64,000 bases of DNA from the NCBI GenBank assembly GCA_051883415.1, contig JBJETR010000064.1, positions 18,573 through 82,572 on the forward strand, in the 5' to 3' direction. Made by a program: the position numbers and the translations under genes. Under the pieces are notes generated by a model that worked only from the letters and a program-made list of their open reading frames with translations, had not been told where the DNA came from and searched no databases. This stretch comes from Christensenellales bacterium (GTDB lineage: Bacteria > Bacillota > Clostridia > Christensenellales > UBA3700). Shown one piece after another: positions 8,575 through 29,798 of the stretch; position 1 is the first letter of the stretch, and the number at the start of each line of letters is the position of its first letter.

Positions 8575-8605
8575 TTGGTTTAAGTTTATCTTCCTAATAT
8601 ATAAT
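8575..8605 (+). promoter_or_regulatory. Candidate sigma-A-type promoter for the giant operon (weak call)
   Basis: TTGGTT, then a 19-nt spacer, then TATAAT (or a 17-nt spacer to TATATA). It is followed by the hairpin aatcgca/tgcgatt (8615-8636), which abuts the AGGAGG at 8637. Confidence 0.3.
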
Positions 8606-8646
8606 AAATAAGTAAATCGCACATATATCTGCGATTAGGAGGAAGT

Positions 8647-11600
8647 ATGAGAAACAAGAAATTGATAACCTTGCTAGCTTTGCTGATTGTACTGGTTATC
8701 GCATGTTTGTTGGTTTTGTCTGCCTGCGTTGATACTAATGGCGGTGGCGACAATACCGGTGGCGGCGACAATACCGGTGGCGGCGACAATACCGGCGGCG
8801 GCGACAATACCGGTGGTGGTGACAATACCGGCGGCGACAATGTCGGTGGAGATGAAGAGGATTTACCTCCTCCACCTCCAATTATCGATAACAAACCGAA
8901 GCCTGTAAAGAAATCGGCACTTGAAGTGTTGAAGATGATGGTGGGCGGTATCGACAACTCCGCAGAAGACGAAAAGCGTCTCTATCTCGAGTTTATCGGA
9001 CAAGTCACTTTGACAGAGCAGCCCGAAAATATGCCTGAGGTTAAGACGGACTACGAATTGTCTCTAAAGACCAATATGCTAGGCATCTTGGCAGAGGAAA
9101 ATGCGAGTGTATCCAAAAACGAGTTCGCTCTGGTACTCAAGCAAGTCGACAATAGCGCAATCAAGTTTGCATTCTACATAATCGAAGAAAAAGCTTACCT
9201 ACAAGTTGAGGGAAGCTCTGCTTTGATTTATTTGTCCGACTTCAACATGAACTACCTTACTCAAATAATTAGTAAAGTTCCGGGACTCATCGGAGGACTC
9301 GACCTTGATTCTCTTTTGGGTGGCTTTGGCGGTGTAGACGGCATCTTGTCTTTGGTGCTCGGTATGTTGTGTAACAACGTTAAGTACGAGGCGGTTACCG
9401 AAGGAGCGGACGTGACGACAAAATTGTCGGTTGACTTCGAAATCAACAGCTTCATGAACTCTATAAAAGGTGTGCTTGGCGGTATTGACCTGGGCGGACT
9501 GCTTGGTATTAACCTCGATATCAAATCTTTGATAGATTCTATTGCCGCAATGATTCCTAATATGGACATCACTTTGTCGGCAACGCTTATCAACGGCATC
9601 TTGGCAGAAGACGACGGAATTAAGCTTGACGTTACCAACAAGGACGAAAATTCCAACTTCTTGCTCAAGAAAAGGTTTGACATAGGAGAAACCGCACCGG
9701 ATATCGACTTGCCTGTAGTAGAAGAATTTAGAGAATTCAGCTTGAGCAACATCGCTTTTGATATTGATTTGATAATCGACAGCGGTATCGAAGACGGCGG
9801 CGCTCCTAAGCAAGTTGACGTAGGACAACTTATCAATATGTTTACCGGTCAAGAGACTTTGCCTGCGGGCATAATTCTCCTTGACGTTACTATGGGCTTC
9901 AGACTCAGCTTTAAGATAGACCTCGACCTCAACTATGCAGCCGAGGACGCTGATAGAAACCTCATAGCTATCGAACTCTTCCTAATTGACAGAAATCATA
10001 ATAAAATAGAGAGTACGCCGCAGCTTGGATTGTATTATCAACAGAGAGCGGCATACGTCAACCTTGGCAATTTGTTGCCAAACTATTATCGTAGCAAGAG
10101 CGTGAGAATAGATACTAATCTCGACGCTTTGATTAGCAAACTCGTTACTTTGTTGACGGGTGAAATCGACAAAGCCCTCGGCACCGACTTCGATGAAGCG
10201 ATGAACGGAGGCAACGAGCCTGCACTAGGTCTAAACAAAGTTTACAACAGCTCCAACATGATAGCTTTGAGTGTGGGCGAAGGCGGCGAAGCAGTAGTAA
10301 AACCGGGATACGCTATGTTGTTGGACGCTATCACGGGACTTATAGGTATCAAAGACTATATCAATACCGACAACCTTGCCGACGGAGTGCTCAACAAGTA
10401 TCTCGAGATAACGTTCGGCAACGCTATGTTGCAAGCTTTGGAAGGCTTGGTGGGCGAGATACCGTTTAGATTGCCAAACGGTATAAGCGATATAGTATTG
10501 CAAGTGGGCGACTTGGTAGTGCCTGACGTGAATGACGTGGAGGCATATAGAGAATATGCCGACACGGGCAAGCTGACTTTCGGCGTACAAGGTGCCGTAA
10601 GTATAGGCGGAATCGACTTGTCGCTATCCTTGCGCAACTTCAATATCGGATTCCCTATCGAAGGACTTGACAACTACGTTACCAACGCAATAGGGGACAA
10701 GGGCGGATATACCAACTCGGTAGCAGAATTGCTCGACGACGTATTGTCCAACATACATCTACAATTTGGCGTCAATATGACCTTCAACAAAGGCACGTAC
10801 GACTTTATACCTTTGCTCACGAGCTTTGGTTTGACGGGCTTGGAAGGACAACACTTGTTGTGGACGTTCGACAACGACTTCTTGCTTGACGGTGCGTTGG
10901 TTATCCAAATCGCTCTGGACAAGAACAATCACTACAACAGTTCTATAGTTATCGAATTGAGGACCAACAGGGCTATCGGTATAGGCTCGGATATTCTCTT
11001 CCCAGCCAACTCGGTAATCTTGGGCGTTTACGGCTATGCCAACAGCGTATTCATCGACGTATCCAATATCAAGATAGCTAAGATTACTTTGCCTAAGCTT
11101 AAGGCAGAAATCGACTTTACCGAGATAGTTTACAAGTTCATCGGCGACTTCGATTATAGATTGGCGTTCGACTTGTCTACACTGTTCGGTTCGACCGAAG
11201 AAGGAAGTGGCGAAGAGGCGGGCGATCCTGCACAACAAGCCGAAGAATTGATGTTTGAAGAAGGTTCCGAAGGCGGAGAATTGACTCCTGCGGGACAAAT
11301 CATCGTAGGCGTCAACGCAGATACGCTTACCGTTAGCACTACGCTTGCTGCTATACTTAGCATTTTGTCTAGCGTAGGACTCAACGTAGACCTCAGCTTT
11401 ATCAACAGCGCTAGCATTGACCTCATGTTCTCCAGACTACAAGGCGTCAAGCTTGATTTGGCGTTAGAATTGTTGCCTACCGTAGAGGTGGACGCTAACG
11501 GCAACGTAGTAAGCGAGCCTATTTATAATAGCGACTTCAAGATTCACTTTGAGACGGGTACTCAAGATAATCCTATACGTATAGGAAATCTTGACGAACT

Positions 11601-14600
11601 CAAAATCAAACTCTTCGAAAAACAAGCAGAATTCGAGGCGTATGAGGACGACCTTATCGCAGCTATCGTCAACACCGTTGGTAGAGCTTCGTTTAAGGCA
11701 ACCGTAAACCTCAAGACAATGGAAGAAACCTTCAATATTACTAAGATAATCAATAATATCCTTGTTGCGAGCGGTAAGGAATTGGCATTGCCAATCAACT
11801 TGCACCTCGACGATTGGGATACCGAAGTAGTATTGACCATTGCTTGGAACCTCGATATGAAGAACTTCAAGAAGACTCAGTTGCAAGTGAAGTTCGCTTA
11901 CCTCGAGAAGACCTTGCTCGAAGTAGATATCTTCCAAGGTAATATCGTAATAGACTTGACGGGACTCGGCTTCTTTAAGCTGGAAATCGTCAACTCTCCG
12001 TTCGTTAAGGTTATCAACAATGCTTTGACAGACGTCATTGCTACAATAGGTAACTTTAACCTAACCGACATCATCAACGACGCACTCGGCGGACTTACTT
12101 TGGACGGTGCGCTTAGCGGTGCTTTGGCAGAAACGCAAGAAGAAAGCACCCCGGATAGCGGAGCTAAGGAAGGAGAGGCAGGCTTTACCCCTGAAACCAT
12201 GGACCTTATCGCCAAAATTATCAGTGCGGTATCTGCTCACAATGCCAACATCTTCCTCAAACTCGACGCTATTATGATAGACGCCATTCTCAAACAATTC
12301 TTAGGCTTCGGACTTGGTATGAGTATAGGAGTCGGTGGCGAAATCGACTTTGTTGACGGCATAATCAACCTCAAGATTGAAGTCGAGAGTATAAGCGTTA
12401 CGGTTAAGTTCGAGATGCTGATGGGCGAGCCTATCAACCTCAACTTGCCACTCGACGAAATCCCTGACTGGGATGCAACTTCGGGTGCAGACTTCGTGAG
12501 AACTATGCTTGACGGTCTTGATATCGCATTCGCTCTCGATTATGCGATGAGTACTGCAGATATTATGGCTAATGCCAATGCAAACGGAGATAAGTCTTAC
12601 GTGCAAGATGGTGACAAGTACTATACACGTCTTATCATCCAAAAGCTCGAAAGAAGAACGACACTCATCAACACCGACGGTAAATATGCAAGTGCCGGTT
12701 CTTTGCTCGTAACGTTGATGTCTATCGATAAGGATAGATATACTAACACCGAAGACCTCAATGCCGCAGATTCGCACCAGTCGGCAATATTGCATGCAGA
12801 GCTCAATTATAATACGGGCAACCTCAGAATAGTGCTTTGTAAAAACGTTTTGACATTGGGTTCGATTGTTGACTTCGCACAATTTATCGATATCAACATC
12901 GCACTCGACCTTGTCAACTTGCTGGCACCTACCATTGATAGCCTCTTTAAGTCTATAGATCCTGACTACAATGGCGGAAGCACGGGCGGCGGCACTGAAG
13001 GCGGCGGCAGCGAAAGCGGTGGCAGCGGTAGTGAAGGTGGCACACCGGAGACTCCAAAGGAACCAAGCAGAATGGACAAAGCCTTTGCTCAACTAGACGT
13101 TGTACAATTGCTCGGTGGCGGTATCGACGTATATCTCAGAAATACGGGACTCTTCAACGTCAATATTACCTTCGATCCATACACCATCAACTGGTTGATA
13201 GACGAGGTTATGGCAAGTATCTTCGGCTATTATACTATCATTGACCTCGTAGAAATGACGAGAGATGCGACGACGGGCTCGTCCATGTTCTCCACCAACT
13301 ATCTCAAGTCGGTCAACTGGGATAGAATCGACGCAGAGCATACTTGGTATAGCTTGAAACAAATCTTGTTGCCATTGCTCAAAGACGTGGTATCCGGCGT
13401 TGGTTACGTTTGGGTTGCACCACTTATCACCAATGCAATACTCGACGGCTTCTATCCACAAATCAGAAGATTGTTGACGAGATTGTTGCCATTCCCTGTA
13501 TTCAACGAAGTGACTGCGGGACTCAACATAATGGACGGTACACTTGCCAACTTCTATATATTCGGCTACGACTATGACGAGCCGGTATACAAGCCTGACG
13601 GTAGTGTATACGTATATACCAACGTCTCCGACGCGGCGTCGGGCGACAACGTTCCAGCTAAGGGTACGTTCACACGTAAGTATGATAGAAGTACCGATCC
13701 TAACGATGACCAAGGAGCAAGCTACAAGTGGTATTACAACAACAGAAGCGACCATTACTTCTTGGAGATCAAGTTGTTCAACTGTTCGCCATCCGTAGGT
13801 ACACCTGACTATAGTCCTGACGGCTCGACCGAGGGCGTAATGACTTGGGGCAACATAGATGCTGCACCTACCTACGATCCATATTGTTATACCAACAATA
13901 CCATAGGCAAGACGTCGTTCTTGACTCAAAACTTCTCGGGTAAGGAAGTATCTTTCCAAAAGGGAGATCAACTCTACAAGACCTCTCCTACCTATAGAGT
14001 AACCAAGAATAACGGTGCGTCATGCGATATGGACATCAACGACCTCGACTTCAATACGGCAGGCGTATATGAAGTCACGGCTACGGCAGTCTTCAACGGC
14101 GGAGCAGTCGTAAGGACGATGCTTATCAACTTGACGATTTACGGTAAGGACGAGATAGCAGGCGTAGGCGAATATAATTTGAATAAAGAATATCAAGAGT
14201 ATATAGATATATACGCATATAGCGAGTTGCCTAAATATATTGTCATCAGATACGACAATCCTGACGTACTCGGCAATAGTATGAGAAGAATACCTACCGA
14301 GTCGATGAGCTTTACGAACTATGCTCCAACCGCTTATACCGAACACCAAGTAACGGGTACGGTAACCTTCAGTGACGGAACGTCTAAGAGCGTACTCTTC
14401 AAGTACCTAGACAGTACGATACATGATATCACAGGCGGTATCGAGATAGATATAGACTTGTATCAGTATGACCAAACTAAGGTAGACCTCAGCGTATATA
14501 CTCCTGACTTGTTGTACTTTACCTACAACGACGGTACGGCTGACAAGATTAAGGTCAACGGTCTGTGGGATACGTCTTCTGCCGAGCAACTAGTAAACAG

Positions 14601-16503
14601 AGACGGCAGTGATCTCAGCGCAGGTATCTACTGGATTAGCAATACTATCGGCAGTGGAGAAGCTTTGCAAGAGATCAATATCAAGTTCGTGGTTAAGTCC
14701 AAGACTGTAGACTCTGTAGAAGTAAATGGAAATCTTAATAATATAAGAATAAGTCCATATCAATACTACAAGTACTTGATTACGGGTGACGAAAACGAAA
14801 ATCCATTCCCAAGCCAAGTACTAGCTACTTACAATAGAGCAGAAGCATACGATGCAAAAGCTAACAACGGTCAAGGAGCTAACGTAGTAGTCAACGAAGC
14901 GTATAGCGAAATGGTATACGTAAATTGGAGCATTGGCGGACTCAACTTCACCTGGGATAACAGCAACGCTCCTGAATATAACCCTGACGGCAGTCTAGTG
15001 AAGAACGGCAGCGTATCGTTGGATACCACCACGGTGAAAGATCCTACAGCCGAGACACCGGTTAGAATTTACGAAACCAGCTTTGATTGGACGCTTCCTA
15101 TCAACATCACTATGGATAGAAACGACGTTAAAGCAATCTACTTCGACGAAGAGTTGACTCAAAATACTTTGGTTATCGATCCATATCTCTTCAAGATTAA
15201 TCAAGAGGACGGCGTAGATAACTTCCCAACCAACGCATGGGTTGAGTTTACCAACGGAACGGTTATCAACTTGCCTATCGCTTGGATACAAGAAGAAGTA
15301 GACAACTTCGAAGTAGCATACGAACAACAAAGCAGACAGTTTAGAGTATATATCGGTTATGATATCGACACTTATACCAACAACCGTATACCTAGAGCAG
15401 ACATTAACAACGCATTGAGTAATGTTGATTACTGTAGTGCTAAAGGCATCAGCGGTAAGATGTTGCAAAAGATAGTTGTCAACGCTCGTGTTGAGGGCTT
15501 GGAAGCAGTAGGACTCAATATCGAAGGTAGCGAGCTCAACGGTGGAAGATACGTCATCGATCCTGCAAGAGTTAAATACCTCGGTGAGGCTCCATTGCCT
15601 GCAACCGTACCTGTAGTTTACAACGACGGTTCGAGCTCGATACTTCCTGTAGTATGGGATTACGACTTCGATATCAGCATCTACGGCGGTAGAGATTTGA
15701 CTGCAACCGCAACCATAAGAGGTACGGGTATCAGCTTTGACGTGGCTTGCAGAATCCTCGATAGATCGACTCCTGAAGTTGTCAACGACAATATCACTGT
15801 CAATCCATACAAGTTTACGATAGACGACGGAAAGAGAGTATACAGCGAGTTTACCGAAACGATAGCTGTCAAGTACTTCACGAGCTACAAGCTCACGGTT
15901 ACCAACGTCGAAACTCAAGAAGTGACTATCTTCGACAACTTGTTTATCGATGAAAAGCTGGCACTCGAAGCATTGTACACCACGGGTGACAACACAGGCT
16001 TGTATACGGTAGCAACCGAGTACAACTACGATACGTTTGAGTTGCCTGTAACTTGGGACAGAACCAACCTCGATATGGCGGTGACCAAAGATAAAGGCGA
16101 AGACAAGACCGCTGTAGTCAAAGCAAAGATTGTCGGCGCAACCGAAAGCTTCGAAACCTTGAACGTCAACGTCACTGTCGAAGAGAAGATATTCGTCGGA
16201 ATCAACACTAGCGCTGTATACAGATACTTTATCGCTTATGGCGGAGCAGGTCTGTCTTCAGAAGAAATATCTTCCTTCACGGTAACCAGACAACTCAACG
16301 CCTTCTTCGAGGACGGCACAACGCAAAAGCTGGACGTAGTATTCGATCTATCACCTGTAAGCTTCGAAACCGCTAACTACAACTCCGATACAGGCGAATT
16401 CATTAACAGCGCATATATATGCAAGGCGTATATCATGCAATTCTCTGAAATACAGCAGAGCATAGATATCGAAGTATACGTGGCTACCGAGCCAACGGTC
16501 TAA
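8647..16503 (+). CDS. Giant (2,618-aa) lipoprotein. GGGDNT repeat/poly-Pro linker, then about 1,600 aa with no domain I recognise, then C-terminal Ig-like modules.
   Basis: AGGAGG is 5 nt upstream. The signal peptide ends in the lipobox L-S-A-C (Cys27). It is a long uninterrupted ORF. C-terminal modules show the LPxxVxVxYxDGS...VxW pattern of bacterial Ig-like (group 4-like) domains. Confidence 0.85.
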   Translation: MRNKKLITLLALLIVLVIACLLVLSACVDTNGGGDNTGGGDNTGGGDNTGGGDNTGGGDNTGGDNVGGDEEDLPPPPPIIDNKPKPVKKSALEVLKMMVGGIDNSAEDEKRLYLEFIGQVTLTEQPENMPEVKTDYELSLKTNMLGILAEENASVSKNEFALVLKQVDNSAIKFAFYIIEEKAYLQVEGSSALIYLSDFNMNYLTQIISKVPGLIGGLDLDSLLGGFGGVDGILSLVLGMLCNNVKYEAVTEGADVTTKLSVDFEINSFMNSIKGVLGGIDLGGLLGINLDIKSLIDSIAAMIPNMDITLSATLINGILAEDDGIKLDVTNKDENSNFLLKKRFDIGETAPDIDLPVVEEFREFSLSNIAFDIDLIIDSGIEDGGAPKQVDVGQLINMFTGQETLPAGIILLDVTMGFRLSFKIDLDLNYAAEDADRNLIAIELFLIDRNHNKIESTPQLGLYYQQRAAYVNLGNLLPNYYRSKSVRIDTNLDALISKLVTLLTGEIDKALGTDFDEAMNGGNEPALGLNKVYNSSNMIALSVGEGGEAVVKPGYAMLLDAITGLIGIKDYINTDNLADGVLNKYLEITFGNAMLQALEGLVGEIPFRLPNGISDIVLQVGDLVVPDVNDVEAYREYADTGKLTFGVQGAVSIGGIDLSLSLRNFNIGFPIEGLDNYVTNAIGDKGGYTNSVAELLDDVLSNIHLQFGVNMTFNKGTYDFIPLLTSFGLTGLEGQHLLWTFDNDFLLDGALVIQIALDKNNHYNSSIVIELRTNRAIGIGSDILFPANSVILGVYGYANSVFIDVSNIKIAKITLPKLKAEIDFTEIVYKFIGDFDYRLAFDLSTLFGSTEEGSGEEAGDPAQQAEELMFEEGSEGGELTPAGQIIVGVNADTLTVSTTLAAILSILSSVGLNVDLSFINSASIDLMFSRLQGVKLDLALELLPTVEVDANGNVVSEPIYNSDFKIHFETGTQDNPIRIGNLDELKIKLFEKQAEFEAYEDDLIAAIVNTVGRASFKATVNLKTMEETFNITKIINNILVASGKELALPINLHLDDWDTEVVLTIAWNLDMKNFKKTQLQVKFAYLEKTLLEVDIFQGNIVIDLTGLGFFKLEIVNSPFVKVINNALTDVIATIGNFNLTDIINDALGGLTLDGALSGALAETQEESTPDSGAKEGEAGFTPETMDLIAKIISAVSAHNANIFLKLDAIMIDAILKQFLGFGLGMSIGVGGEIDFVDGIINLKIEVESISVTVKFEMLMGEPINLNLPLDEIPDWDATSGADFVRTMLDGLDIAFALDYAMSTADIMANANANGDKSYVQDGDKYYTRLIIQKLERRTTLINTDGKYASAGSLLVTLMSIDKDRYTNTEDLNAADSHQSAILHAELNYNTGNLRIVLCKNVLTLGSIVDFAQFIDINIALDLVNLLAPTIDSLFKSIDPDYNGGSTGGGTEGGGSESGGSGSEGGTPETPKEPSRMDKAFAQLDVVQLLGGGIDVYLRNTGLFNVNITFDPYTINWLIDEVMASIFGYYTIIDLVEMTRDATTGSSMFSTNYLKSVNWDRIDAEHTWYSLKQILLPLLKDVVSGVGYVWVAPLITNAILDGFYPQIRRLLTRLLPFPVFNEVTAGLNIMDGTLANFYIFGYDYDEPVYKPDGSVYVYTNVSDAASGDNVPAKGTFTRKYDRSTDPNDDQGASYKWYYNNRSDHYFLEIKLFNCSPSVGTPDYSPDGSTEGVMTWGNIDAAPTYDPYCYTNNTIGKTSFLTQNFSGKEVSFQKGDQLYKTSPTYRVTKNNGASCDMDINDLDFNTAGVYEVTATAVFNGGAVVRTMLINLTIYGKDEIAGVGEYNLNKEYQEYIDIYAYSELPKYIVIRYDNPDVLGNSMRRIPTESMSFTNYAPTAYTEHQVTGTVTFSDGTSKSVLFKYLDSTIHDITGGIEIDIDLYQYDQTKVDLSVYTPDLLYFTYNDGTADKIKVNGLWDTSSAEQLVNRDGSDLSAGIYWISNTIGSGEALQEINIKFVVKSKTVDSVEVNGNLNNIRISPYQYYKYLITGDENENPFPSQVLATYNRAEAYDAKANNGQGANVVVNEAYSEMVYVNWSIGGLNFTWDNSNAPEYNPDGSLVKNGSVSLDTTTVKDPTAETPVRIYETSFDWTLPINITMDRNDVKAIYFDEELTQNTLVIDPYLFKINQEDGVDNFPTNAWVEFTNGTVINLPIAWIQEEVDNFEVAYEQQSRQFRVYIGYDIDTYTNNRIPRADINNALSNVDYCSAKGISGKMLQKIVVNARVEGLEAVGLNIEGSELNGGRYVIDPARVKYLGEAPLPATVPVVYNDGSSSILPVVWDYDFDISIYGGRDLTATATIRGTGISFDVACRILDRSTPEVVNDNITVNPYKFTIDDGKRVYSEFTETIAVKYFTSYKLTVTNVETQEVTIFDNLFIDEKLALEALYTTGDNTGLYTVATEYNYDTFELPVTWDRTNLDMAVTKDKGEDKTAVVKAKIVGATESFETLNVNVTVEEKIFVGINTSAVYRYFIAYGGAGLSSEEISSFTVTRQLNAFFEDGTTQKLDVVFDLSPVSFETANYNSDTGEFINSAYICKAYIMQFSEIQQSIDIEVYVATEPTV
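8740..8844 (+). repeat. In-frame 18-bp tandem repeat (5 full units plus one 15-bp unit) encoding (GGGDNT)n
   Basis: ggcggtggcgacaatacc repeats head-to-tail with only synonymous third-position changes. Confidence 0.9.
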
Positions 16504-16518
16504 AAGGAGGTATAAGTT

Positions 16519-19500
16519 ATGACTAATAATATAAATAAAAGAATAATCATTACTATTACGTCGATTATACTCATCGTATCGTTGGTATGTGCTTTGTTGA
16601 TGCTCATCGACAAGGATACTAAGCAAAACGAGGCTGTGGCGGAAGAATTGCTCTCCGCCAACAGCACCACTACCGACGGTTTGATAGACGGTGTGGACGG
16701 CAAGCACGCTACTTTGGCGGAATTGCAAGACAAGGCAATCAAAGCAGGTAAGACGCTCAAAACAATAAGTACGCAGAGCGAATTGGAGAGTTTCTTATCC
16801 TCCAACGTATCTACTGATTACGGCGCACTGTACAACGTGTCGGGTGACTTGACACTCAATTGGGAAAAGGAAACCGACAACTACGCCAGCAGTAACAAAT
16901 ATATGAGAGGCGTCTTCGACGGCAACGGCTACACCATCAATATCAGAGGCGGTGTGGGTAAAGGCGCTTTTGCAAGCGGATACGCCGCTAAGCATATCAT
17001 CAATACCGATCCGATATTTGGGGGCTCGGATACGGCAGCCAATCCTATATACATTGCTCCGTCGGGCTTCTTCGTAGCAATCAACGAAGGCACTATCAAA
17101 AACGTTACTTTTAGTTATACCTCCAAGCATATCGAGCCTAACGGTAGAGATGCCGACGGTGGTTCGTGTCTATACAATTCTTATGAACACGGCGTTACTC
17201 CGAGCGTCGGCATAATTGCGGGACTCAGCAACGGCGGTGAGATAAGCAACTGTAAGGTTATCCTCAAAAATCCGTTCGTGTTGTACGGAACAGGTCAAGG
17301 CGGTCTCGCTGCTCTCACGGCTAACGGAAGATTTAGAGAAAACAGTGCAATTGCGGGCGGTGCTGTCGGCATTGCTACCAACGGCGCCAAGATAAGCAAT
17401 ATCACGGTAGATTTGCAGTCTTCCTTCTCCGTAGTGTGCCGAGGCAACCAAAATACCTCTAACTCGGCAAGAGCAACGCTTACTTGTGCGGGCGGTATCA
17501 TAGGTAACTTCGTACCTATCGGTGGTACTACGATGAAGTATTGTACCGTGACAGGCAACGGAACTATGTCTTCTATTGCAGGTTCGGGTAATAATGATTC
17601 TAAGTTCCATACGTTCGTGGGCGCCGCAATCGGCGGAACCTTCCGCTTTACCGGTGTAGAGAATTGGGAAAACTTTGCAATGGGCGATTATCCTACTGCC
17701 GAGATTACTGCTATAATGTCCAATTATCAAGGTAAAATGCGTTATAATCCTCAAAAAGATTACAACAATATGCAGACTAACTACGCTAAGCTCTTCGGTG
17801 CGATAGGTAGCCAGACGGGTGATATCACGGGCGTCAACGGAATGGTGTTCTTGTTTGACTACAAGACCTTCTGCGAAGCCAACGGCGTCGACGGAACCTA
17901 TATGGACAGCTGGTGGATGAAGTTTACTTTGGACAGCATAGGTACTTCGATTTATCCTACGAGTACGGGCGGACAAGTCGACGTAAGTTTTGACAGCGAC
18001 AACGAGACGTACGATATTAGAGTAGAAGCAAAAGCAGACGGCTTTGCAGGCGATATGAGCCAAAATCCTGATTCGGGCTATTGTAAGAAGCTTGAAATAG
18101 CCGACGGGGAATACGGAAACTTTATATGGGAAGCTAACGTCAACAGAAACGGTCAGACCTCTAAACATATCAAGGCAGAGGAATACGTAGGCGGCGAAAT
18201 CTACTTGCTCAGAGCTACCGACTACGGTACGATGAACTACAGCTTCGGTGAGATTGCCGACTATTCGATATCTTCTAACAACGGCTTGGTATCTAATAAA
18301 GAATACGACAGCGATCCTATCAATGAACCTACTTTGGTACTCAAATCAAAGCTGGGCAATTCGTTGACGGTTAATCCTGAGGCTTATCAATGGGAATTGC
18401 TCAAGAGTGCCGAACCAACCCCTATTGCGGTGACCAACTCTCAGACTTTCTTGCCTGGTACCTATACGTATAGAGCCTACAAAATGCTAGACCAAGAAAA
18501 ATTGGCTTACTATGACGCAACCAACAAAGTGCTGGCTAGATATAAAAAGAGTGAGAAAGAGACCTTTACGGTCAAAATGGCAGAACTCAAATACGACGCG
18601 CCTAACGAAAACGTATGGCTCAACCAGGCAAATATAGGTATGTACATCATCAAGGATAAGTCTTGGATGTTCAACTATATCGAATATAGCGTAGACGGTA
18701 GTTGGTCGGGATTGATACCTACTTTCGGCGTAGCCAAATACGTATATAAGGACAACGTGTCCACGGGTAAATCGGGAAGAACGTATGCTTTTAGAGCTTA
18801 CGTGCAAGTGGGTACAGACTACATACAGGTAGCTCAATCTGCCGTGCAAGTCAAGGTGCGTATCGACAACGAGAAACCTTTGATTGAGGACGTACACTAT
18901 TATCTCAGTGATAGCGAAGGTACTCAAGGAGAAGAGATTACCGTAAGCGACCTCAACGAGTGGAGAACGACTCCTATATTGATGAAGTATACAGTCAACG
19001 ACGAGGGACGTAGCGGTATCGTTTCGGGTAGCGGACATACCGATTACGTTGCTAATGAAAACGGTACTTGGAGCTGTAGCGTATTGCTCAAGGATACCAA
19101 GACCTATACCTTGTCTTACACCGACGCTACCAACAATACCGTTTCGATGACGTACAACGTCAAGATAGACAACGTCAATCCTATCTTCAACGTAGTATTA
19201 TCTTCGGGCAACAAGGTGCAAATATCGGGTGGTAGATACTATTATTCGGAAGCGCTCAAAGTGACTTACAATGCCACGATGGGCGAGAGCGGATACGACC
19301 TATACGTATCTACGGCAACCGACGATAGCATTGTCGGAGAAGACAAGAGAGTATGGGTTATGTATGAAGGTGCGTTGAGTAATACCGGCGAGATGCTTGT
19401 CGACGAAGAGTTGAACAGCCAAGAAATTTGGTACAAGCTAGTCAATAAGCAGGGCTTATACGAAGACGTTGTGGTACAACTCGTCAACGCTTCGATGACT

Positions 19501-22086: not shown

Positions 22087-22098
22087 AGGGGAGGAAGT

Positions 22099-25000
22099 AT
22101 GAATAAAATAAATAAAAAATCTCTTATAGCTTTAGTAATTGCCGTATTGGCGATAGTAACCTTGACGGGTGCAATGGCGTTGAGCTTTGCCTCTCCGTCA
22201 GGCTACACTAGCCAAGGCGACTACGGCGTTGCCAATACATCGAGCGAGATAGGCGAGAATACACCGACGCTGACGGGTAGCCTTATATATAGCTCAAGTG
22301 ATTTGGTAAGTGCATTGAGTTCCGGTACGGGCGATCACGTGTTGTATAGCAACGTCACTCTCGACGCATCGTCGTTGTGGAGTAGTACGACATCTACCGT
22401 AGGCGTGCTGGACGAAAACTTTGTCCTTGACGGAAAAGGTTATACCATCACCTTGACGGGCGCAACGAGTTTTTATAGAACCGACTATAGTCCGTCCAAC
22501 TATTCGGCGATACAAAATAACTTCTCTACAACCGAGATATGTAAGGTAGCGGGCGGTCTTGCTCAAATCAACAAGGGCATTATCAAAAACGTCAACTTCG
22601 TATGGGCTAACAGCATAGATTACGGCGAGAGCCTGCAAGCAAATGACAATACCGACGCATATCAAAGTACGTCGTACGGTATGATATTCGGTATCAATGC
22701 CGGTACTATAGACAACTGTACGCTGACGGTCAACAACTTTATGCGCGTCAATATTCGTCTTACCAACCAAAGCTGGAACTCTCACTTGCATACCTCGGCA
22801 GTAGGTGGCTTTGCAGGCACGCTGATGGGCGGTACTATCAAAAACTCTACCGTCACCCTTAACCAAGGCATTACCGCAGTGCAACAAGGTATCAGTTGGA
22901 GTAGTTGGGGAACAAAATATGCAGGACAAAATAAACTTTGGGTAGGCGGTTTCTGCGGAGTTGTCAACAACGGAGGCAACATCTACAACGTAACCACCAA
23001 AGGTACGGGAAATATCCACGTAAATAGCGTAGAATCGCTATCTCAAAACCAAAACAGTATCGTAGCCGCTTCGGGTATCGTTGCGGGCTGTAACGCAATA
23101 GCGGCTGATAGTGATTCTACTAATACAGGTAACTGGACTTCTATGGGCGGCGCCGGTACTATCAACGGCGTAATGAACTATTGGACGGGTACCGCACGTA
23201 CAATGGTAGGTGGTTCTTTCGGTGCGGAATTGGGACCTACTTCGGGTACCGTAACTACGGGAAGTAGAGATTTTACGGGACAAGGCGTAATTTGTGGACT
23301 TGCAGGTAACAATTCCAGCAACGGAGGTCCGACCGTCCACAATATCTACTATATCAATATGGACGTACCGAGTGCGGTATTTGCCAAGAACTGGAACTAT
23401 TCTTCGACAGGGGATACCATTACCGGTACTACCCCTACGGGTACGGCATCTATCAAAACCACCGTCAATACTACGGTAAGTACGACTGCATTCCCTAATA
23501 CCGGTACGCTCAAGATTTACTTCGACGGTACTACCGATACGGCTGAGCCTAAGGTGTCATTCGACGCACCTTACTATTCGGGAGACGGATTTACCTTTGG
23601 CGGTGCGCAAGGTATCGTATGGAGAGTCAAGTACACTACTCCGACCGAGCCTAACAGAACGTTGGATATCTACAAGAGCGTAGGTAGCGTGGACAACGTG
23701 GATAGTTATAAGTCTTGGAACACCGAGAGCAAGATTCCTCGAACCTTGACGGGCGACAATCAAAAGTTTGAATTTACCTTCGATACGGGTATCGTAGCAA
23801 CTTACGGTAATCCTCGCAACCCTAAACTCAATGGCGTCATTACCGATATGCCTACCGATGAGACGTATTCTAATATATATATCGCTACGGGACACGAGTT
23901 TGACGGTAGCGGACTGTACATTCCTTCGCTTAGATTGTACTCAGACTCTGCCAAGACTAAGCTTGTAGGACAGATACAAGGCGATGAAAGTGTGTTTAAG
24001 GCTTATAAGCAAGGTGCACCGGGACAACAATACAATCTATCGGATGCTATAGACGTGGCAACTTGGGAGATATATTGCCCTGTACAAGACAGCACGTACG
24101 ATATCTTGTTTACGGCTACCAACACCGAAAATATGAACGTCGTAGTCTTTAAGGAGAACGACAACTTCAGAATAAGACAAGTAACCACGCCTAAGTCGGT
24201 GACGGTATCTTATACCAACGCACCTGCCGACTTCGTTTACAATTCTTCTCCTGCGGCATTTACGGCGACTGCGAGCGGACTTGTGAGCGGATACGAGGCT
24301 ACGCCAAATATCGAATACTATAAACTAGTAGAGGAAGAAGGCGTATGGAACGAAGTGGCTATCGTTGACAATCAAGCCGAAAATGCAGGCAAATATAGAG
24401 CTAAAATTACTACTATGTCTTCTAGCAACTACGTGGTGGCTAATCCTGAGGAGTTGGCTATAGATTTTGAGATAACTCCTAGAGAGATAACAGTAACGCC
24501 GTTGCCTGAAGAATTGGAAGCGACTAATCCAATCTTCACCTATGACGGCTTGGAGAAGTTGCCTACGTATAGCGTATTCGGCAACGGAGTTAGCGAAGCA
24601 AGCGCCTTGATAAAGATACTCAACGTAGTCGACAACAACGTAATCAAGGTTACTTACGAGCCTTACGCTACCGAGACGACCAACGCTACCGACGATAGAT
24701 TTGTCAATGCGGGTACTTATAAGATGATATTGGAGAAGGAAAGCGGAACTATGTCTGCCAACTATAGTTTTGAAAAGACTACCTTTATCATCGAGATTGG
24801 TCGAGCAGACGTGACTATCACCGTATCGGCGGAAGAAACGATACAAGACGGCGTAATCATCAAAGAGTATAATCAAGGCTTCCAAAAAGTTGTATGGAAT
24901 ATTGTGAAGCCTGAAAACGGTGAAACGCCTGTCCTTAGCGAATCTTATAAAAATAATGAAAACGGTATTGCAATGGCAGACGGTGCCGCTACGGGCGGTA

Positions 25001-28000
25001 TGTATACCGTTACGGCAAGTATTGATATCGACAAAGGATTTAACAACAACTACAAGTACACCGTTTATGAGGTAGCCCTCAGAGTAAAACCAAAAGACTT
25101 TACAATCAATTGGTTCCCTAATCTGACTGCAGAGGATGTGGAAGCTAAGAAGATTGTGCCTTACGTCTCTGAGATTTACGATTACGGCAACGTAAGCAGA
25201 ACGGGTATGTTCAAAGACGATGCAAGAGACGACGCTTACGATATTACCGGCTTTAAGTATATGTGGAAGGCTACCGAAGAGGGCGAGTACACTCAAGTAA
25301 GTCAAGCGTTCAATGCAGGCTACTACGTAGTGTCGCCTATCATGGAGACCTATGGCAACTACAATATGCTTAACGGTGAGTTTGCTTTCCAAATTACTCC
25401 TATCACCACGACGATAGAGGTAACGCCTACGAGCAAGCTTTACGGTGACGTCGATCCTGCCTTCGATTGGGCTGTTGCGGGTGGATATACTCCGTTGTTC
25501 GAAAACGACGAAGTAATACCTAACTTCCTTGCTTCCGAGCAATATTCCGCTCCGGGAACGTATGCCGTAACTTTGGCAAGCGTGGGTGGTGCTCAAGGTG
25601 TCAACTACGTGATTACGCTAATCGAAAATACCGCTCTTACTATCAACAAGAGAGGCGTGTCGATTGAGTTTGGCGTAGAGGGCGCTGTGGACAACGTGGC
25701 AATCTACGACGGCACTATCAAGACCTTTACAACCCCTATATTTACCTATCAAAACGAGAATTTCGTAGACGCAGAGGGTAAGATGGGCGTGCAATACGAG
25801 TATTACAAGATTGACAGAACCGTTATCAACGCCAGCGAAATTCGCAATGCGGGTAAGTATAGCGTCAGCGTATTGTTGACCGAGGAAGCCGACAAGTACT
25901 TTACCATTACTTACGGCTCGGTTGTCAACTTTATGATTGACAAGTTGACAGTAACTATCGACACCATGGATAAAGTAGTGACCTACGGCGATGAGATAGG
26001 TGATTACACCTGGAATTATGCTGACGGAAGTGCAACCTTCGTAGCAGAAGACGGTATCGTGGTTACCCCAACTTGCAGTTACGTGCGCTACGGCAATTGC
26101 GGAACCTTCGATATCTTGGCAACTATTGCCGACAGCGTAGACGACGAGGTTCAACTTGCAGAAAACTACAACCTCGAGTTCGGCAACGTCGGACAACTCG
26201 TGGTCAACAAGAGAGGTATCGTCGTAAAGGCTATTACCTTGCCTCTCGACAAGACTTACGACGGCACGGCTAAGGTAGTACAAGCAGTGTGTGACAACAT
26301 CGTCAACGAAGACGTGCTTAACTTCACCTATACCTTCAACGGCTTGGCTCAAGCAGTAGACAAGGGTAGCTATTCTGTCAACGTCGACCTTGTTGACAAC
26401 AATTATTATATCGAACAGACAACTTCCGAATTGCTCGTCATCACCGCTAGAAAAGTGGTATTGGAAGTTGACGACGTCAACTTGACGTATGGCGCAGACG
26501 TTCCGACTATTACTTGGAAATATGCAATGGGAAGTTTGCAATTCGTAGAAGATGACGGAGTGAGCGTCAACGTGGCGACCGATTATACCAAGTTTAGTGC
26601 GGTTGGCAATTATGCAATATCCGTAGAAACCAATGCAAGTGACAACTACGACGTGACTTTGCCTAACAATGCAGAAGTAGTTGTGAACGCACTCGCTATC
26701 ACGGCAACGCTAACTATGCCTGTAGAATTGGTGTACAACGGACTAGAGAAGACAATAGAAGCAAACCTCAACGGCGTGCTAGGCGATGATGTAGTTGACT
26801 TTGACGTATTCTACAACGGAGGGGCTAGCGCAATCGACGCAGGCAACTACGTAGTGACCGTTGTCAGCAACAACGCCAACTATACGATTTCCGTTGACGG
26901 CATAGACAACTTTACAATCTCGCCTAAGACTATCAAGTTCTTGACCAACGACGGCGAAAAGGGCTACGGCTCCGACATCATCGTATTTGCCGACGGCGTA
27001 GCACCTTACGAATTGATAGACGGCACTATCGAAGATAGAGACGTAGATGACGTAATTATATCCGTGGCTTGCGACCTTGCAGAAGAGATAAGAGGTGCAA
27101 CTACCCCTAATGCGATTTACGTTGTGCTTAGCGGTAGCAAGGCAGGCAACTACAATGCAGTTACCGAAACTAAGGGTAGCATCACAATAGTTAGCAACAG
27201 CCTTAGCAACGTAGTACTCGAAGAAGCGTCGAGCATATACGACGCAACCGACAAGGTAGCGGGCATCAACGTGCTCAACGTCAAGAAAGACGACGTTACG
27301 ATTACCTATAAGGATTGTAACGATATCGACGTAGCGGCTATCATCAATGCAGGTACGTATAAAGTAGTTGTCGAAGTCAAAGCCGAGGCTCAAGTCAACT
27401 ATCAAGGAGATATGTCGATTGAGTTGCCATACGTAGTCGAGAAGAGAACTATCGATATCGTGGCTGTCAATACTCAATTGACCTACGGCGATATCAAGCC
27501 TGCTACCTTCTGGGCTTACGCAGAGGGAAGCTTGGAAATGATAGATAGTGACGCATTGGCTATTACCGTCAACGAGGCTTATAACGAGACTTCTCCTGCT
27601 GGCACGCCAATCAACGTGACCTACGTCGCACCTATCAACGACAACTATATCTTCAACTTGCCTCAAGACGTGCAAATTACCGTGGCTAAGAAGACCTTGA
27701 CCTTTATCGTGGATTTGCCTACCGATGCAGTCTACGACAAGACGGCTAAAGAAGCCGGCACGGCTATTAGCGGCGTTGTCAACGGCGACGATATTAGCAT
27801 TGACGTGTTGTACAGCGACAACGTAAATGCAGGCGAGTGTCAAGTAACCTTGCAAGTCGGCGGAACGAAAAAAGATAACTATATCTGGGACGAGTACGAA
27901 GGTTCTTTCGTCATCGCTCCTAAGCAAATCACCGTCAACAAGATGAATTTGCCTATCGACTTGGTTTACAGCGCTACCGCTAAGGTTGCTAGCGTTGAAC

Positions 28001-29226
28001 TCAACGGCGTGATTGCAGGCGACGATGCCCAAGCTGTCATCCTATACAACGGCAATGAAGAAGCAATCAACGTAGGCGAATACGTTGTCACTGTCGTAGC
28101 TTCCAATGGTAACTACGAGATAGTAGGCAACTATAGTCAAAATATGACTATCGTAGCAAGAGAGTTGACGCTCGATAGCTTCGTATTCGATAGCAGTTAC
28201 GTATACGACGGTACCGCTAAGACCGCGAGTGCAATCCTCAACAATATACCTGCAGAAGAAACGCAGAGCAATTTGTTCTCATTAAGATTTGCTAAAGGCG
28301 GTGAAGAACCTGCCGAGACAGCAATCAATGCGGGCGTGTATAGCGTGACTATCGTGCTAACCAGCAACAACTATACCTTGGCTGATTATACGGCAGGCTC
28401 GTTGACTATTGACAAAAAGGCTATTACCGTAGCCAGCGTAGAAGGAACGAGTAACCAATACGACGGCAACGTTAAAGTTCTTACCGTTGTATTCGACGGC
28501 GTTGTAGACGGCGAGGTTGTAGAATACGTATACGTTGACGAAGAAGGAAACGCTATCAATCCAATCGATGCAGGTACCTATGACGGTTACATAGCATTGG
28601 ATCCAAACGGCACTGTTGCAGCCAACTACGATTTGACAAGCGTTGACCAAGTTACTTTGACTATTACCAAAGTGGCAAACGTGATAAACGTAAACGATAT
28701 TACCGTTGTTGCCAACTACAATAAGTTGACTGTCAACGGCGTAAGCGGAGAGGACGTTCGTTATAGCCTTGACGGAACTAATTGGCAAAAGAGTAACGTA
28801 TTTAGTGTAAGTGCAAAAAATACTTACAAAGTATACGTGAAAATTGTGGGTGACAGCAACCACAACGATAGTGAGGTTGTTAGCGTCAATAATATCAAGA
28901 CGGGTGGAGATCCAACCGTTATCAATACAAAACTCGATGCAATAGGCGATTTTGGATTTGACGATATAGCAGCGTTGAAAGAAATCGAAGAGCTAATCAA
29001 TGACATTGCAGACGTCGACAAGAACGTGATTGACTCTAGCAAGCTTGGCAGCGTAAGAAATGCTTACAACACTCTCATCAATGACGCTAAGATCGTTGTA
29101 AACGAAGCACAAAACGTTGCAGGTAAAGCGGCAGGCAGAGAAGTAGGTGCTGCTGCGGCGGCAAGCATGGCGTTGTCTTTGGGCGCAATAGCACTAGCAA
29201 TCGTCAAAAAGAAAATGTTGGCGTAA
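22099..29226 (+). CDS. Giant (2,375-aa) envelope protein. Signal peptide, GLUG-like head, about 17 MBG-type (YDG / YG) stalk modules, helical segment, C-terminal TM helix plus KKK tail.
   Basis: GGGGAGGA lies in the 12-nt gap. The signal peptide ends near SFA-SP. Head motifs include LDGKGYTITL, AGGLAQINKGIIKNVNF, VGGFAGTLMGGTIKNSTV and VGGFCGVVNNGGNIYNV. Repeated modules look like KTYDGTAK...NAGxYxV...NY...I.pk. The C-terminus is SMALSLGAIALAIVKKKMLA. Confidence 0.85.
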   Translation: MNKINKKSLIALVIAVLAIVTLTGAMALSFASPSGYTSQGDYGVANTSSEIGENTPTLTGSLIYSSSDLVSALSSGTGDHVLYSNVTLDASSLWSSTTSTVGVLDENFVLDGKGYTITLTGATSFYRTDYSPSNYSAIQNNFSTTEICKVAGGLAQINKGIIKNVNFVWANSIDYGESLQANDNTDAYQSTSYGMIFGINAGTIDNCTLTVNNFMRVNIRLTNQSWNSHLHTSAVGGFAGTLMGGTIKNSTVTLNQGITAVQQGISWSSWGTKYAGQNKLWVGGFCGVVNNGGNIYNVTTKGTGNIHVNSVESLSQNQNSIVAASGIVAGCNAIAADSDSTNTGNWTSMGGAGTINGVMNYWTGTARTMVGGSFGAELGPTSGTVTTGSRDFTGQGVICGLAGNNSSNGGPTVHNIYYINMDVPSAVFAKNWNYSSTGDTITGTTPTGTASIKTTVNTTVSTTAFPNTGTLKIYFDGTTDTAEPKVSFDAPYYSGDGFTFGGAQGIVWRVKYTTPTEPNRTLDIYKSVGSVDNVDSYKSWNTESKIPRTLTGDNQKFEFTFDTGIVATYGNPRNPKLNGVITDMPTDETYSNIYIATGHEFDGSGLYIPSLRLYSDSAKTKLVGQIQGDESVFKAYKQGAPGQQYNLSDAIDVATWEIYCPVQDSTYDILFTATNTENMNVVVFKENDNFRIRQVTTPKSVTVSYTNAPADFVYNSSPAAFTATASGLVSGYEATPNIEYYKLVEEEGVWNEVAIVDNQAENAGKYRAKITTMSSSNYVVANPEELAIDFEITPREITVTPLPEELEATNPIFTYDGLEKLPTYSVFGNGVSEASALIKILNVVDNNVIKVTYEPYATETTNATDDRFVNAGTYKMILEKESGTMSANYSFEKTTFIIEIGRADVTITVSAEETIQDGVIIKEYNQGFQKVVWNIVKPENGETPVLSESYKNNENGIAMADGAATGGMYTVTASIDIDKGFNNNYKYTVYEVALRVKPKDFTINWFPNLTAEDVEAKKIVPYVSEIYDYGNVSRTGMFKDDARDDAYDITGFKYMWKATEEGEYTQVSQAFNAGYYVVSPIMETYGNYNMLNGEFAFQITPITTTIEVTPTSKLYGDVDPAFDWAVAGGYTPLFENDEVIPNFLASEQYSAPGTYAVTLASVGGAQGVNYVITLIENTALTINKRGVSIEFGVEGAVDNVAIYDGTIKTFTTPIFTYQNENFVDAEGKMGVQYEYYKIDRTVINASEIRNAGKYSVSVLLTEEADKYFTITYGSVVNFMIDKLTVTIDTMDKVVTYGDEIGDYTWNYADGSATFVAEDGIVVTPTCSYVRYGNCGTFDILATIADSVDDEVQLAENYNLEFGNVGQLVVNKRGIVVKAITLPLDKTYDGTAKVVQAVCDNIVNEDVLNFTYTFNGLAQAVDKGSYSVNVDLVDNNYYIEQTTSELLVITARKVVLEVDDVNLTYGADVPTITWKYAMGSLQFVEDDGVSVNVATDYTKFSAVGNYAISVETNASDNYDVTLPNNAEVVVNALAITATLTMPVELVYNGLEKTIEANLNGVLGDDVVDFDVFYNGGASAIDAGNYVVTVVSNNANYTISVDGIDNFTISPKTIKFLTNDGEKGYGSDIIVFADGVAPYELIDGTIEDRDVDDVIISVACDLAEEIRGATTPNAIYVVLSGSKAGNYNAVTETKGSITIVSNSLSNVVLEEASSIYDATDKVAGINVLNVKKDDVTITYKDCNDIDVAAIINAGTYKVVVEVKAEAQVNYQGDMSIELPYVVEKRTIDIVAVNTQLTYGDIKPATFWAYAEGSLEMIDSDALAITVNEAYNETSPAGTPINVTYVAPINDNYIFNLPQDVQITVAKKTLTFIVDLPTDAVYDKTAKEAGTAISGVVNGDDISIDVLYSDNVNAGECQVTLQVGGTKKDNYIWDEYEGSFVIAPKQITVNKMNLPIDLVYSATAKVASVELNGVIAGDDAQAVILYNGNEEAINVGEYVVTVVASNGNYEIVGNYSQNMTIVARELTLDSFVFDSSYVYDGTAKTASAILNNIPAEETQSNLFSLRFAKGGEEPAETAINAGVYSVTIVLTSNNYTLADYTAGSLTIDKKAITVASVEGTSNQYDGNVKVLTVVFDGVVDGEVVEYVYVDEEGNAINPIDAGTYDGYIALDPNGTVAANYDLTSVDQVTLTITKVANVINVNDITVVANYNKLTVNGVSGEDVRYSLDGTNWQKSNVFSVSAKNTYKVYVKIVGDSNHNDSEVVSVNNIKTGGDPTVINTKLDAIGDFGFDDIAALKEIEELINDIADVDKNVIDSSKLGSVRNAYNTLINDAKIVVNEAQNVAGKAAGREVGAAAAASMALSLGAIALAIVKKKMLA

Positions 29227-29238
29227 GGAGGAAATAAT

Positions 29239-29736
29239 ATGAAAAAGAAATTGTTGATAGCAATATTGGTATTGACTGTGGTTTTGGTGGGGGCTTTGGC
29301 AGGATGTAAGACCAAGCTCACGACCAAAGATTTCTACAACATAGCCTCCTACACTACCTCGTCATCGCAGACGAGGAGTGTATCCGTCACCGTTAATCAA
29401 GGCGAAACTTTGATTTATAGCAACGTCAACGGCGAAGTGCAAGATCCTTATAATATCGGTTTTGACAACGCAATCACGCAAAACGTTGGTAGCGGACTAA
29501 AATTTGAAAAGGCTTATTTTACCAAAGAAGTGGTTGTCAATGGCAAAGCTACTTCTAAGTACACTGCCGATATCGTAGATACTAATGCTTTCTTGGGCGC
29601 TAGTGACGCACAAAACGCAACTATCGAAGTGATTGTCAATACCGAAGCTAAGACTTTGGCTTCCACCACTATCAAATACGACGTAGTAAAGACTTCTGCA
29701 ACGTATTCGGTTGAAATCGTGGTGACTGTAGGCTAA
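29239..29736 (+). CDS. Small (165-aa) lipoprotein of unknown function; last gene of the giant operon
   Basis: GGAGGA lies in the 12-nt gap. The signal peptide ends in the lipobox L-A-G-C. The mature part is beta-strand-rich by composition. Confidence 0.75.
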   Translation: MKKKLLIAILVLTVVLVGALAGCKTKLTTKDFYNIASYTTSSSQTRSVSVTVNQGETLIYSNVNGEVQDPYNIGFDNAITQNVGSGLKFEKAYFTKEVVVNGKATSKYTADIVDTNAFLGASDAQNATIEVIVNTEAKTLASTTIKYDVVKTSATYSVEIVVTVG

Positions 29737-29749
29737 AAACTTACCAATC

Positions 29750-29798
29750 AAACGGTGACCTTTTTGAGCAATACGCTTGAAATAAGGTCACCGTTTTT
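29750..29798 (+). terminator. Probable terminator of the giant operon (long-loop hairpin)
   Basis: aaacggtgacc ... ggtcaccgttt form an 11-bp stem with a 25-nt loop, followed by TTT. Confidence 0.5.

Follow-up and report, generated by a model that had tools for sequence, protein, structure and literature searches.

The stretch analysed here (the window) comprises 64,000 nucleotides (nt) from a Christensenellales bacterium (GenBank assembly GCA_051883415.1, contig JBJETR010000064.1, positions 18,573 to 82,572), and it carries a block of four genes, g1 to g4, for three giant proteins and a small lipoprotein of the predicted cell envelope (Table 1). A first-pass annotation of the sequence had read these four same-strand open reading frames (ORFs) as one operon, and their positions, sizes and spacing were all confirmed. 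The gaps g1-g2, g2-g3 and g3-g4 measure 15, 12 and 12 nt and contain the Shine-Dalgarno (SD) motifs AAGGAGG, GGGGAGG and GGAGGA, respectively, and the ATG of g1 is preceded by TTAGGAGGAAGT. Terminator-like hairpins were found on both sides of the block, as the annotation had claimed. The hairpin 3′ of g4 has a longer loop than the criteria of the hairpin scan allow and was recognised from the sequence. Internal promoters or terminators had been named as evidence that would speak against a single unit, and consensus scans gave none above shuffled expectation: promoter-like matches inside the block did not exceed it (23 vs 19.1 and 21 vs 17.4), and terminator-like matches inside the 21-kb block fell below it (3 vs 8.0 and 6 vs 8.1). 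We predict that the four genes are carried on a single transcript. Long antisense ORFs lie within the giant genes (at most 429 amino acids (aa), mostly with TTG starts) and are taken to be shadow ORFs that reflect repeat and codon composition, not genes.

Table 1. Features in and around the four-gene block; positions are those of the window, residues (res) those of the encoded protein.
Feature	Position	Strand	Description
GtrA/DPMS-type membrane protein	4234-4779	-	4 kb upstream of the block
Amidase_6 protein	6729-7229	+	hydrolase-type gene
OmpR-type response regulator	7358-8032	+	Response_reg + Trans_reg_C
Terminator-like hairpin	8155-8186	+	closes regulator transcript; hairpin 8155-8180 (9-10 bp stem), then T-run; TTTTTTGG
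Conserved leader/promoter region	8405-8646	+	~240 nt before g1 ATG, nearly invariant in L009-L011
Inverted repeat	8615-8636	+	7-bp AATCGCA-N8-TGCGATT, directly before g1 SD
g1	8647-16503	+	2618-aa giant lipoprotein ORF, acidic, without C-terminal transmembrane segment
g1 N-terminus	8647-8898	+	signal peptide + lipobox (res 1-27), then (GGGDNT)n-PPPPP low-complexity linker (res 28-84); from translation
g1 repeat-module array	8899-12090	+	modules A (res 85-206, partial), B (238-520), C (555-847), D (882-1146); acidic/Gly-rich disordered linkers between them in the AlphaFold2 (AF2) model
g1 regions E and F	12187-13896	+	E res 1181-1440, F res 1475-1750; conserved
g1 C-terminal Ig-like domain array	13897-16500	+	distal end; Big_4 match res 2316-2343
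g2	16519-22086	+	1855-aa head-stalk-anchor protein ORF: signal peptide, GLUG-like head (~res 100-400), repeat stalk, transmembrane helix 1822-1849, KKKKK tail
g3	22099-29226	+	2375-aa head-stalk-anchor protein ORF: signal peptide, GLUG-like head (~res 100-430), MBG array (~700-2200), helical juxtamembrane segment, transmembrane helix 2350-2369, KKK tail
g4	29239-29736	+	165-aa lipoprotein ORF, Cys23
Terminator-like hairpin	~29753-29803	+	3′ of g4; GGTGACC-N22-GGTCACC then TTTTTG
HI0933-like gene	29755-31035	+	mechanical GTG start
Promoter-like site	29825-29853	+	TTTACT-17-TATAAT with TG extension
Antisense ORFs	9199-28863	-	within the giant genes
Signal-peptide ORF	42846-44432	-	C-terminal transmembrane segment ending KKKRA; no Pfam match
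2281-aa giant	45155-52000	+	lipobox LMAC; 11 Flg_new_2 and 3 Flg_new repeats; BspA-type LRR_5
Lipobox ORF	52099-54081	-	lipobox and C-terminal transmembrane segment ending RKKKKA

The linkage of g1 to a membrane-anchored giant is conserved well beyond the window. When 185,579 species, each represented by one genome, were scanned with the [IF]N[KW]LID[DE] motifs of g1 region F, 31 loci were obtained, all of them in Christensenellales, Christensenellaceae or 'Clostridia' metagenome-assembled genomes (MAGs). Contigs encoding homologues were then looked up and one metagenome scan was made, which brought the number of related loci to about 40, again all from Christensenellales or Clostridia MAGs. 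At every locus that could be judged, a g1-like gene with a lipobox lies ~1-23 nt before a giant that has a C-terminal transmembrane (TM) anchor and a basic tail. A start-codon heuristic gave four larger gaps; the ORFs at those loci abut g1. The adjacency is kept across ~30 species-level MAGs and a range of 27-85% identity, and the synteny test by which the operon was to be judged therefore did not refute it.

Three arrangements of these genes were observed. Arrangement A, as in the window, consists of the regulator, g1, g2 and g3, with or without g4. In the split arrangement B, an MBG giant with its g4 is separated by 1.5-2 kb from g1, a second giant and a second g4, and each g4 overlaps the preceding giant by 4-14 nt. 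The minimal arrangement C has a 1654-aa g1-like gene and a 1174-aa MBG giant, 1 nt apart. The annotation had asked for a search for the four-gene order in other genomes; the g1-giant and giant-g4 adjacencies are conserved, but forms B and C show that the full order is not universal. One MAG, E09__bin257, holds two separate g1-plus-giant clusters (L028 and L035), which indicates that the system can be duplicated within one genome.

The second conserved adjacency involves g4. Its product has the lipobox LAGC, with a Cys that is invariant in 25 g4 homologues, followed by a beta-rich domain of ~140 aa, and hydropathy analysis shows an N-terminal segment only. It founds a family of ~160-aa lipoproteins (39 clusters) for which no relationship was found in Pfam or PDB, and none to g1. 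A derivation of g4 from a detached copy of a g1 module was considered and rejected, as profile-profile comparison aligns the signal peptides only. The state of g4 was scored where the flanks extend past g3, and the flanks of most mid-distance loci end inside g3. Within that scope, a g4-like gene always stands directly behind a C-terminally TM-anchored giant, with an overlap of 4-14 nt, a gap of up to 12 nt, or a fusion. In arrangement B every TM-anchored giant is paired with a separate g4 paralogue, and the g4 of the window is nearer to the paralogue associated with the MBG giant (31%) than to the other (27%).

The fusions are the strongest evidence for a coupling of g3 and g4. Locus L045 is a syntenic orthologue of the block, with g1-like, g2-like and g3-like genes followed by the same two genes for flavin adenine dinucleotide (FAD)-dependent proteins. 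Here the g3-like frame reads without a stop into g4: a first TM segment is followed by KKRKDDEQEVSPKKSKRVTVKRASK, a second hydrophobic segment with the lipobox FAGC at its end, and the g4 domain (32% identity, E 7e-14; hidden Markov model (HMM) 1.7e-15). No SD or obvious internal start codon was seen ahead of the g4 part. The cluster of the 2125-aa fused form has 41 members, nearly uniform in length, on >200 contigs (NCBI, JGI, ENA, Logan); coming from independent sources, these contigs show that the fusion is not an assembly error. A second fusion with the same topology, a 3008-aa giant at L042, was found on a single contig (HMM 1.3e-24). The topology of both runs out, TM, basic cytoplasmic loop, TM, out, and obeys the positive-inside rule, which would place the g4 domain on the outer membrane face beside the anchor of the giant. 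Their presence in two lineages argues that g3 and g4, at least, are coupled physically or in function.

The product of g1 is a giant lipoprotein built around a repeat module. Its lipobox, LSAC, has a Cys27 that is invariant in 24 aligned homologues, and a lipobox is present in 75 of the 82 g1-family members of at least 1000 aa, the remaining 7 appearing N-terminally truncated. Each having a signal peptide with a lipobox, g1 and g4 are predicted to be lipid-modified. Hydropathy analysis of g1 shows the N-terminal segment only. The low-complexity linker behind the lipobox gives way to Flg_new repeats in other lineages. The N-terminal 1,150 aa contain at least four diverged copies of the module, and profile self-comparison of the blocks (C-D, E 7e-11; B-D, 9e-7; A-D, 2e-5) identifies them as repeats. 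This comparison detects no relationship of regions E and F to the module, and neither belongs to a known family; the most conserved motifs of g1 are those of region F. The C-terminal ~870 aa, where the alignment shows recurrent 'DG..x..V.W' motifs and conserved W/Y/G columns, look like immunoglobulin (Ig)-type domains.

Searches with g1 returned relatives without names. Among 5.8 billion proteins, 26 full-length homologues (P0001-P0026) were found at 27-83% identity, all unnamed or 'hypothetical', together with the 1654-aa short form. A profile of g1 residues 85-1284, searched exhaustively against 1.84 billion representative proteins, gave 84 clusters at E <= 1e-3. Relatives of 4,300 aa have as many as 10 tandem copies of the module, and those of 7,100-7,300 aa have many: the 7,116-aa representative P0084 has 13 matched module stretches, and L037 (9266-31102) and L039 (9368-28339) encode g1-family lipoproteins of ~7,240-7,280 aa and >6,324 aa with greatly expanded module arrays. 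Big_4 is the sole Pfam match of g1, and its module has no Pfam, NCBIfam or PDB sequence match; distant family members likewise lack a Pfam domain, and the profile of residues 85-1284 matched nothing in PDB. Conservation in the alignment falls on Gly, Pro, Tyr, Leu and Asp, and nothing resembling a catalytic set, for example of conserved His, Cys or Ser, is obvious. No part of the operon is better conserved among close relatives than the modules (82-93% identity).

Structure prediction did not assign the module to a known fold. The AF2 model of g1 residues 85-1284 (predicted local distance difference test score (pLDDT) 67, predicted template modelling score (pTM) 0.54) consists of blocks of long strands and helices with disordered linkers between them. 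A Foldseek search with this 1200-aa model, which is of moderate confidence, placed LolA-family entries at ranks 1, 2 and 20 with weak scores (4mxt, E 2.4e-3, probability 0.99; 8cgm, E 5.7e-3, probability 0.92; 3buu, probability 0.41; TM-score <=0.37 on the target). The model of the single module C (pLDDT 78) matched neither LolA nor any other structure, the best values being E 0.93 in PDB and E 0.066 in BFVD. A LolA-like or beta-groove assignment of g1, suggested by its sequence and by the large model, was not reproduced at module level, and the fold is therefore treated as unassigned. An AsmA/TamB-type or bridge-like beta-groove was likewise rejected, there being no Pfam or PDB match, and the modules contain helices and are separated by disordered linkers. 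The g1 module family appears to be new, without sequence or structural relatives in the searches made and confined to one order.

The other two giants, g2 and g3, share a head-stalk-anchor plan. Each has one N-terminal and one C-terminal hydrophobic segment with a run of Lys after the latter, and so the signal or anchor helices and the TM-plus-Lys tails of the annotation were recovered by hydropathy analysis. All 23 positional g2 homologues checked begin with an N-terminal signal sequence, in which an AxA-type site is common, and end in a C-terminal hydrophobic segment with basic residues behind it; the signal peptides of g2 and g3 would probably be cleaved. Their heads are homologous (BLASTP E 1e-4 over ~290 aa) and carry GLUG-like 'G.I.N' rungs, and the g2 stalk is similar to the g3 repeats (BLASTP E 6e-4). 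The domain names first given to the giants stood in part. MBG_2 (PF18676) matches two stretches of g3 at 43.7 bits (cutoff 25), which establishes MBG membership, and an iterated HMM found five copies of one MBG subtype there. In contrast, MBG_3 (23.8, cutoff 25) and Glug (PF07581) in g3 (17.4 bits, cutoff 20.5) remain below the Pfam gathering scores, g2 has no Pfam MBG or Glug match and only a sub-threshold match to PEGA, and the Ig-like label of g1 has the one Big_4 match behind it. The g3 protein is 100% identical to the NCBI entry 'MAG: MBG domain-containing protein [Christensenellales bacterium]'. A profile search with g3 found many MBG proteins across phyla, including TpsA/filamentous haemagglutinin (FHA)-type exoproteins with PF05860, MBG_2 and Glug; generic MBG proteins dominate this search, and mid-distance orthologues were not returned. 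The two-partner secretion (TPS) domain PF05860 itself is absent from g2, g3 and the neighbouring genes.

Sequence divergence bears on where these proteins may be located. Among close relatives, identity is 95-96% for the regulator and ~90% for g4, against 78-85% for g1 and 72-77% for g2 and g3, and the head is the fastest-evolving part of g3 (57-64%, compared with 75-90% for the stalk). All three giants are strongly acidic, with a composition rich in T, V, G and N and not in serine. Giants that diverge much faster than their neighbours, a variable g3 head and strong acidity are signatures of surface proteins. Giants of 5,900-6,500 aa on metagenome contigs (L046-L049) resemble g2 and g3 in the GLUG-like head alone, and neither g1 nor g4 was seen beside them within the stretch covered.

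Searches for other modes of surface attachment were negative, in agreement with the annotation, which had reported no LPXTG, SLH, LysM or CW-type motif. The four proteins contain no [LIV]Px[TAS][GANS] motif anywhere, no SLH, LysM, CW_binding or SH3 match in Pfam or NCBIfam (E <= 0.01), and no cohesin, dockerin or sortase match in Pfam. The flanking ORFs that were scanned (~1-52 kb of the window) included no secA2, secY2, asp or gtf genes. Pfam and NCBIfam searches and the flanking ORFs also gave no toxin domain, immunity gene, transporter or TpsB-type partner. Pfam, NCBIfam, PHROGs and PDB searches agree that the proteins match no characterised family of independent function. Three further proteins of the window, unrelated to the block, have comparable anchors: one combines a signal peptide with a C-terminal TM segment, another has both a lipobox and a C-terminal TM segment and may be anchored at both ends, and the third is a 2281-aa lipobox giant (Table 1). 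Membrane anchoring free of sortase motifs is thus not peculiar to the block, which suggests that display through a C-terminal TM segment with a Lys/Arg tail is used more widely in this organism.

The neighbourhood of the block offers a candidate for its control. Upstream lie metH, EamA, GtrA-like, mscL and Amidase_6 protein genes and the OmpR-type regulator; downstream are the two FAD-dependent proteins. An orthologue of the regulator stands directly upstream of the g1-like gene in most arrangement-A loci, and the regulator is 63% identical to the copy in L002, where g1 is only 34% identical. No histidine kinase is adjacent to it in the window, and one follows the orthologue only in L002, L024, L026 and L028. 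We consider this regulator a candidate for controlling the block. In L009-L011 the sequence upstream of the nearly invariant g1 leader diverges. The leader contains no strong sigma-70 consensus, and the inverted repeat at its 3′ end may be a regulatory or mRNA-stabilising element. The GtrA/DPMS-type gene, which lies outside the block, is the only glycosylation-associated gene near it. The HI0933-like gene overlaps the g4 terminator hairpin if its mechanical GTG start is used, and its real start is probably the ATG at 29861 (MKYDFDVIIIGGG), upstream of which the promoter-like site is found. A phage or defence origin of the block was rejected: the flanks are housekeeping genes, and in the PHROG scan g4 alone had a match, marginal and to a family whose function is unknown; no PADLOC run for defence systems was made.

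A gene of the peptidoglycan-hydrolase type lies a few genes upstream in each arrangement, and it belongs to a different family each time. It is Amidase_6 in the window, SH3 plus NlpC/P60 in the mid-distance A loci (L002 5291-6166) and Hydrolase_2 in B (L003 8940-9368, minus strand). This is suggestive of an enzyme that could help to thread the giants through the wall, or else it reflects coincidence or shared synteny; wider synteny accounts for part of the co-occurrence.

On the strength of the sequence features, of linkage conserved between genomes, of the fusions and of a narrow distribution, we think it reasonably probable that the block is a lineage-specific operon of uncultured gut Christensenellales, encoding membrane-anchored surface proteins that are co-expressed and function together. 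Conserved linkage and fusions are what point to a co-functioning surface module with g4 at the anchor. In this model, g1 would be held in the cytoplasmic membrane by its N-terminal lipid, with the flexible linker, the array of ~270-300-aa beta/alpha modules, the E/F regions and the Ig-like tail extending outward. The g2 and g3 proteins would be Sec-exported type I membrane proteins, rooted by the C-terminal TM helix and Lys tail, whose MBG/Ig-like stalks project outward and carry a GLUG-type head at the distal N-terminus, an architecture of fibrillar adhesins. The small lipoprotein g4 would lie at the outside of the membrane, close to the TM anchor of the MBG giant. A contact of g1 with g2 is likewise predicted, and adhesion would, judging from architecture, be the function. 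The multi-subunit surface structure first proposed gains from the conserved linkage and the g3-g4 coupling, whereas its fixed stoichiometry and its form as a fibre, sheath or adhesive layer remain conjecture.

Several observations weigh against this reading. Gene order is not fixed: in arrangement B the 1.5-2 kb that part the MBG giant and its g4 from g1 and its giant contain opposite-strand genes, and the minimal form has just a g1-like gene and one giant. In many relatives g2 and g3 are 70-190 nt apart, so that separate promoters are possible there. Anchoring by lipid and by a C-terminal TM segment is also used by unrelated proteins in the window, adhesion is deduced from architecture only, with GLUG below the Pfam cutoff, and the predicted structure of the g1 module (pLDDT 78) matches nothing in PDB or BFVD.

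The main competing explanation is that the giants are three independent adhesins, brought together by co-regulation or descent, with g4 as a private accessory and no multi-subunit structure. That g2 and g3 are paralogous head-stalk-anchor proteins is what a tandem duplication of an adhesin gene would give, and the rearranged order in other lineages, the long g2-g3 spacers and the same anchor types in unrelated window proteins fit as well, as does a comparable five-giant cluster described in Apilactobacillus kunkeei (PMC12863079, abstract). However, g1 has no paralogous relation to g2 or g3, yet at every locus that could be judged a TM-anchored giant stood 1-23 nt downstream of it. This adjacency spans 27-85% identity and all three arrangements, including the two-gene form, and being invariant it speaks against full independence; the g4 fusions and the one-to-one pairing of g4 further show functional coupling of at least one pair. 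We therefore regard independent adhesins as somewhat unlikely. A more ambitious form of the favoured module, which we hold to be distinctly unlikely, is a dedicated membrane-rooted, wall-spanning organelle unique to Christensenellales, in which g1 would be a scaffold or sheath alongside g2/g3 fibres, g4 the base and the regulator a switch, with insertion aided by the hydrolase.

Two other possibilities were considered. It is quite improbable that g1 is mainly an envelope scaffold or carrier of hydrophobic ligands, its LolA-like half-barrels binding lipids, acyl chains or the anchors of the giants in the wall zone. The LolA-family ranks of the 1200-aa model, the alternation of long curved-sheet-type strands with helices, and the membrane-adjacent position of modules that are the most conserved part of the operon would suit such a role, but the low TM-scores and pLDDT of that model, the empty result with the better module model and the lack of any sequence or profile match to LolA-like, AsmA or TamB families are against it. 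Contact-dependent antagonism or toxin delivery comes to mind because MBG and GLUG are frequent in FHA-type exoproteins, many of which the g3 profile matches. We judge it highly improbable: the similarity lies only in stalk repeats, PF05860, a toxin domain, an immunity gene and a transporter were all missing from the searches described above, and the C-termini of g2 and g3 are membrane anchors, not toxin tips.

With respect to known systems, serine-rich repeat proteins (SRRPs) and Embp/Ebh-type proteins are sortase-anchored giant adhesins of Gram-positive bacteria. They share with the block giant modular stalks and a distal binding region on a surface that is here presumed to be monoderm. Unlike them, the block has no LPXTG, serine-rich repeats, accessory Sec or glycosyltransferase genes, and it is the membrane, rather than peptidoglycan, to which its proteins would attach. 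Clostridia also have gene clusters for cellulosome scaffoldins (sca); no cohesin, dockerin, carbohydrate-binding module (CBM) or SLH domains were detected in the block by Pfam. The P1/P40/P90 proteins of Mycoplasma pneumoniae form an operon-encoded, membrane-anchored adhesin complex, and they resemble the block in that a large TM-anchored protein works with partners encoded beside it; homology was neither sought nor seen. Their host lacks a wall, they are much smaller than the giants of the block, and a lipoprotein of repeat modules is missing. The carrier fold of LolA/LolB is weakly resembled by part of the N-terminal model of g1, but no sequence relationship was found, and tandem modules of ~300 aa in a 2,600-aa protein are not a LolA architecture.

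The block is also like fibrillar adhesin-like giants with MBG and GLUG domains. The likeness consists of bona fide MBG_2 repeats and a GLUG-like head in g3, the head-stalk-anchor logic of g2 and g3, and, at low similarity, the head and repeat type of g2. The block differs in that g2 and g3 are anchored by a C-terminal TM segment and Lys tail and not by LPXTG, two-partner secretion or a type IX secretion system (T9SS), and in their obligatory linkage to a non-homologous g1 and a small lipoprotein. An analogue by description is the Giant1-5 cluster of A. kunkeei, five consecutive genes for extracellular proteins of 3,000-8,000 aa with N-terminal beta-solenoid heads and long stalks, in which neighbouring giants co-diverge. 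It belongs to another host lineage, and the abstract mentions no g1-type array, lipoprotein partner or anchor fusion (PMC12863079). Literature searches found nothing on the four-gene system. Clusters of giant-adhesin genes are thus already known, and MBG/GLUG stalks are common; what appears to be new here is the g1 module family, its obligatory pairing with a TM-anchored giant, and the g4 family with its anchor fusions.

Christensenellales are widespread gut bacteria and are largely uncultured, and we know of no account of how they contact hosts or partner microbes. An operon of ~21 kb that about 30 species-level genomes have kept, with one variant alone on >180 contigs, is probably a major investment in the cell surface, and it provides a defined candidate for an adhesion apparatus of this order. 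The natural fusion predicts a contact of the g4 domain with the juxtamembrane base of the MBG giant. Moreover, the block illustrates how giant proteins may be displayed independently of sortase, through predicted lipid and C-terminal TM anchors.

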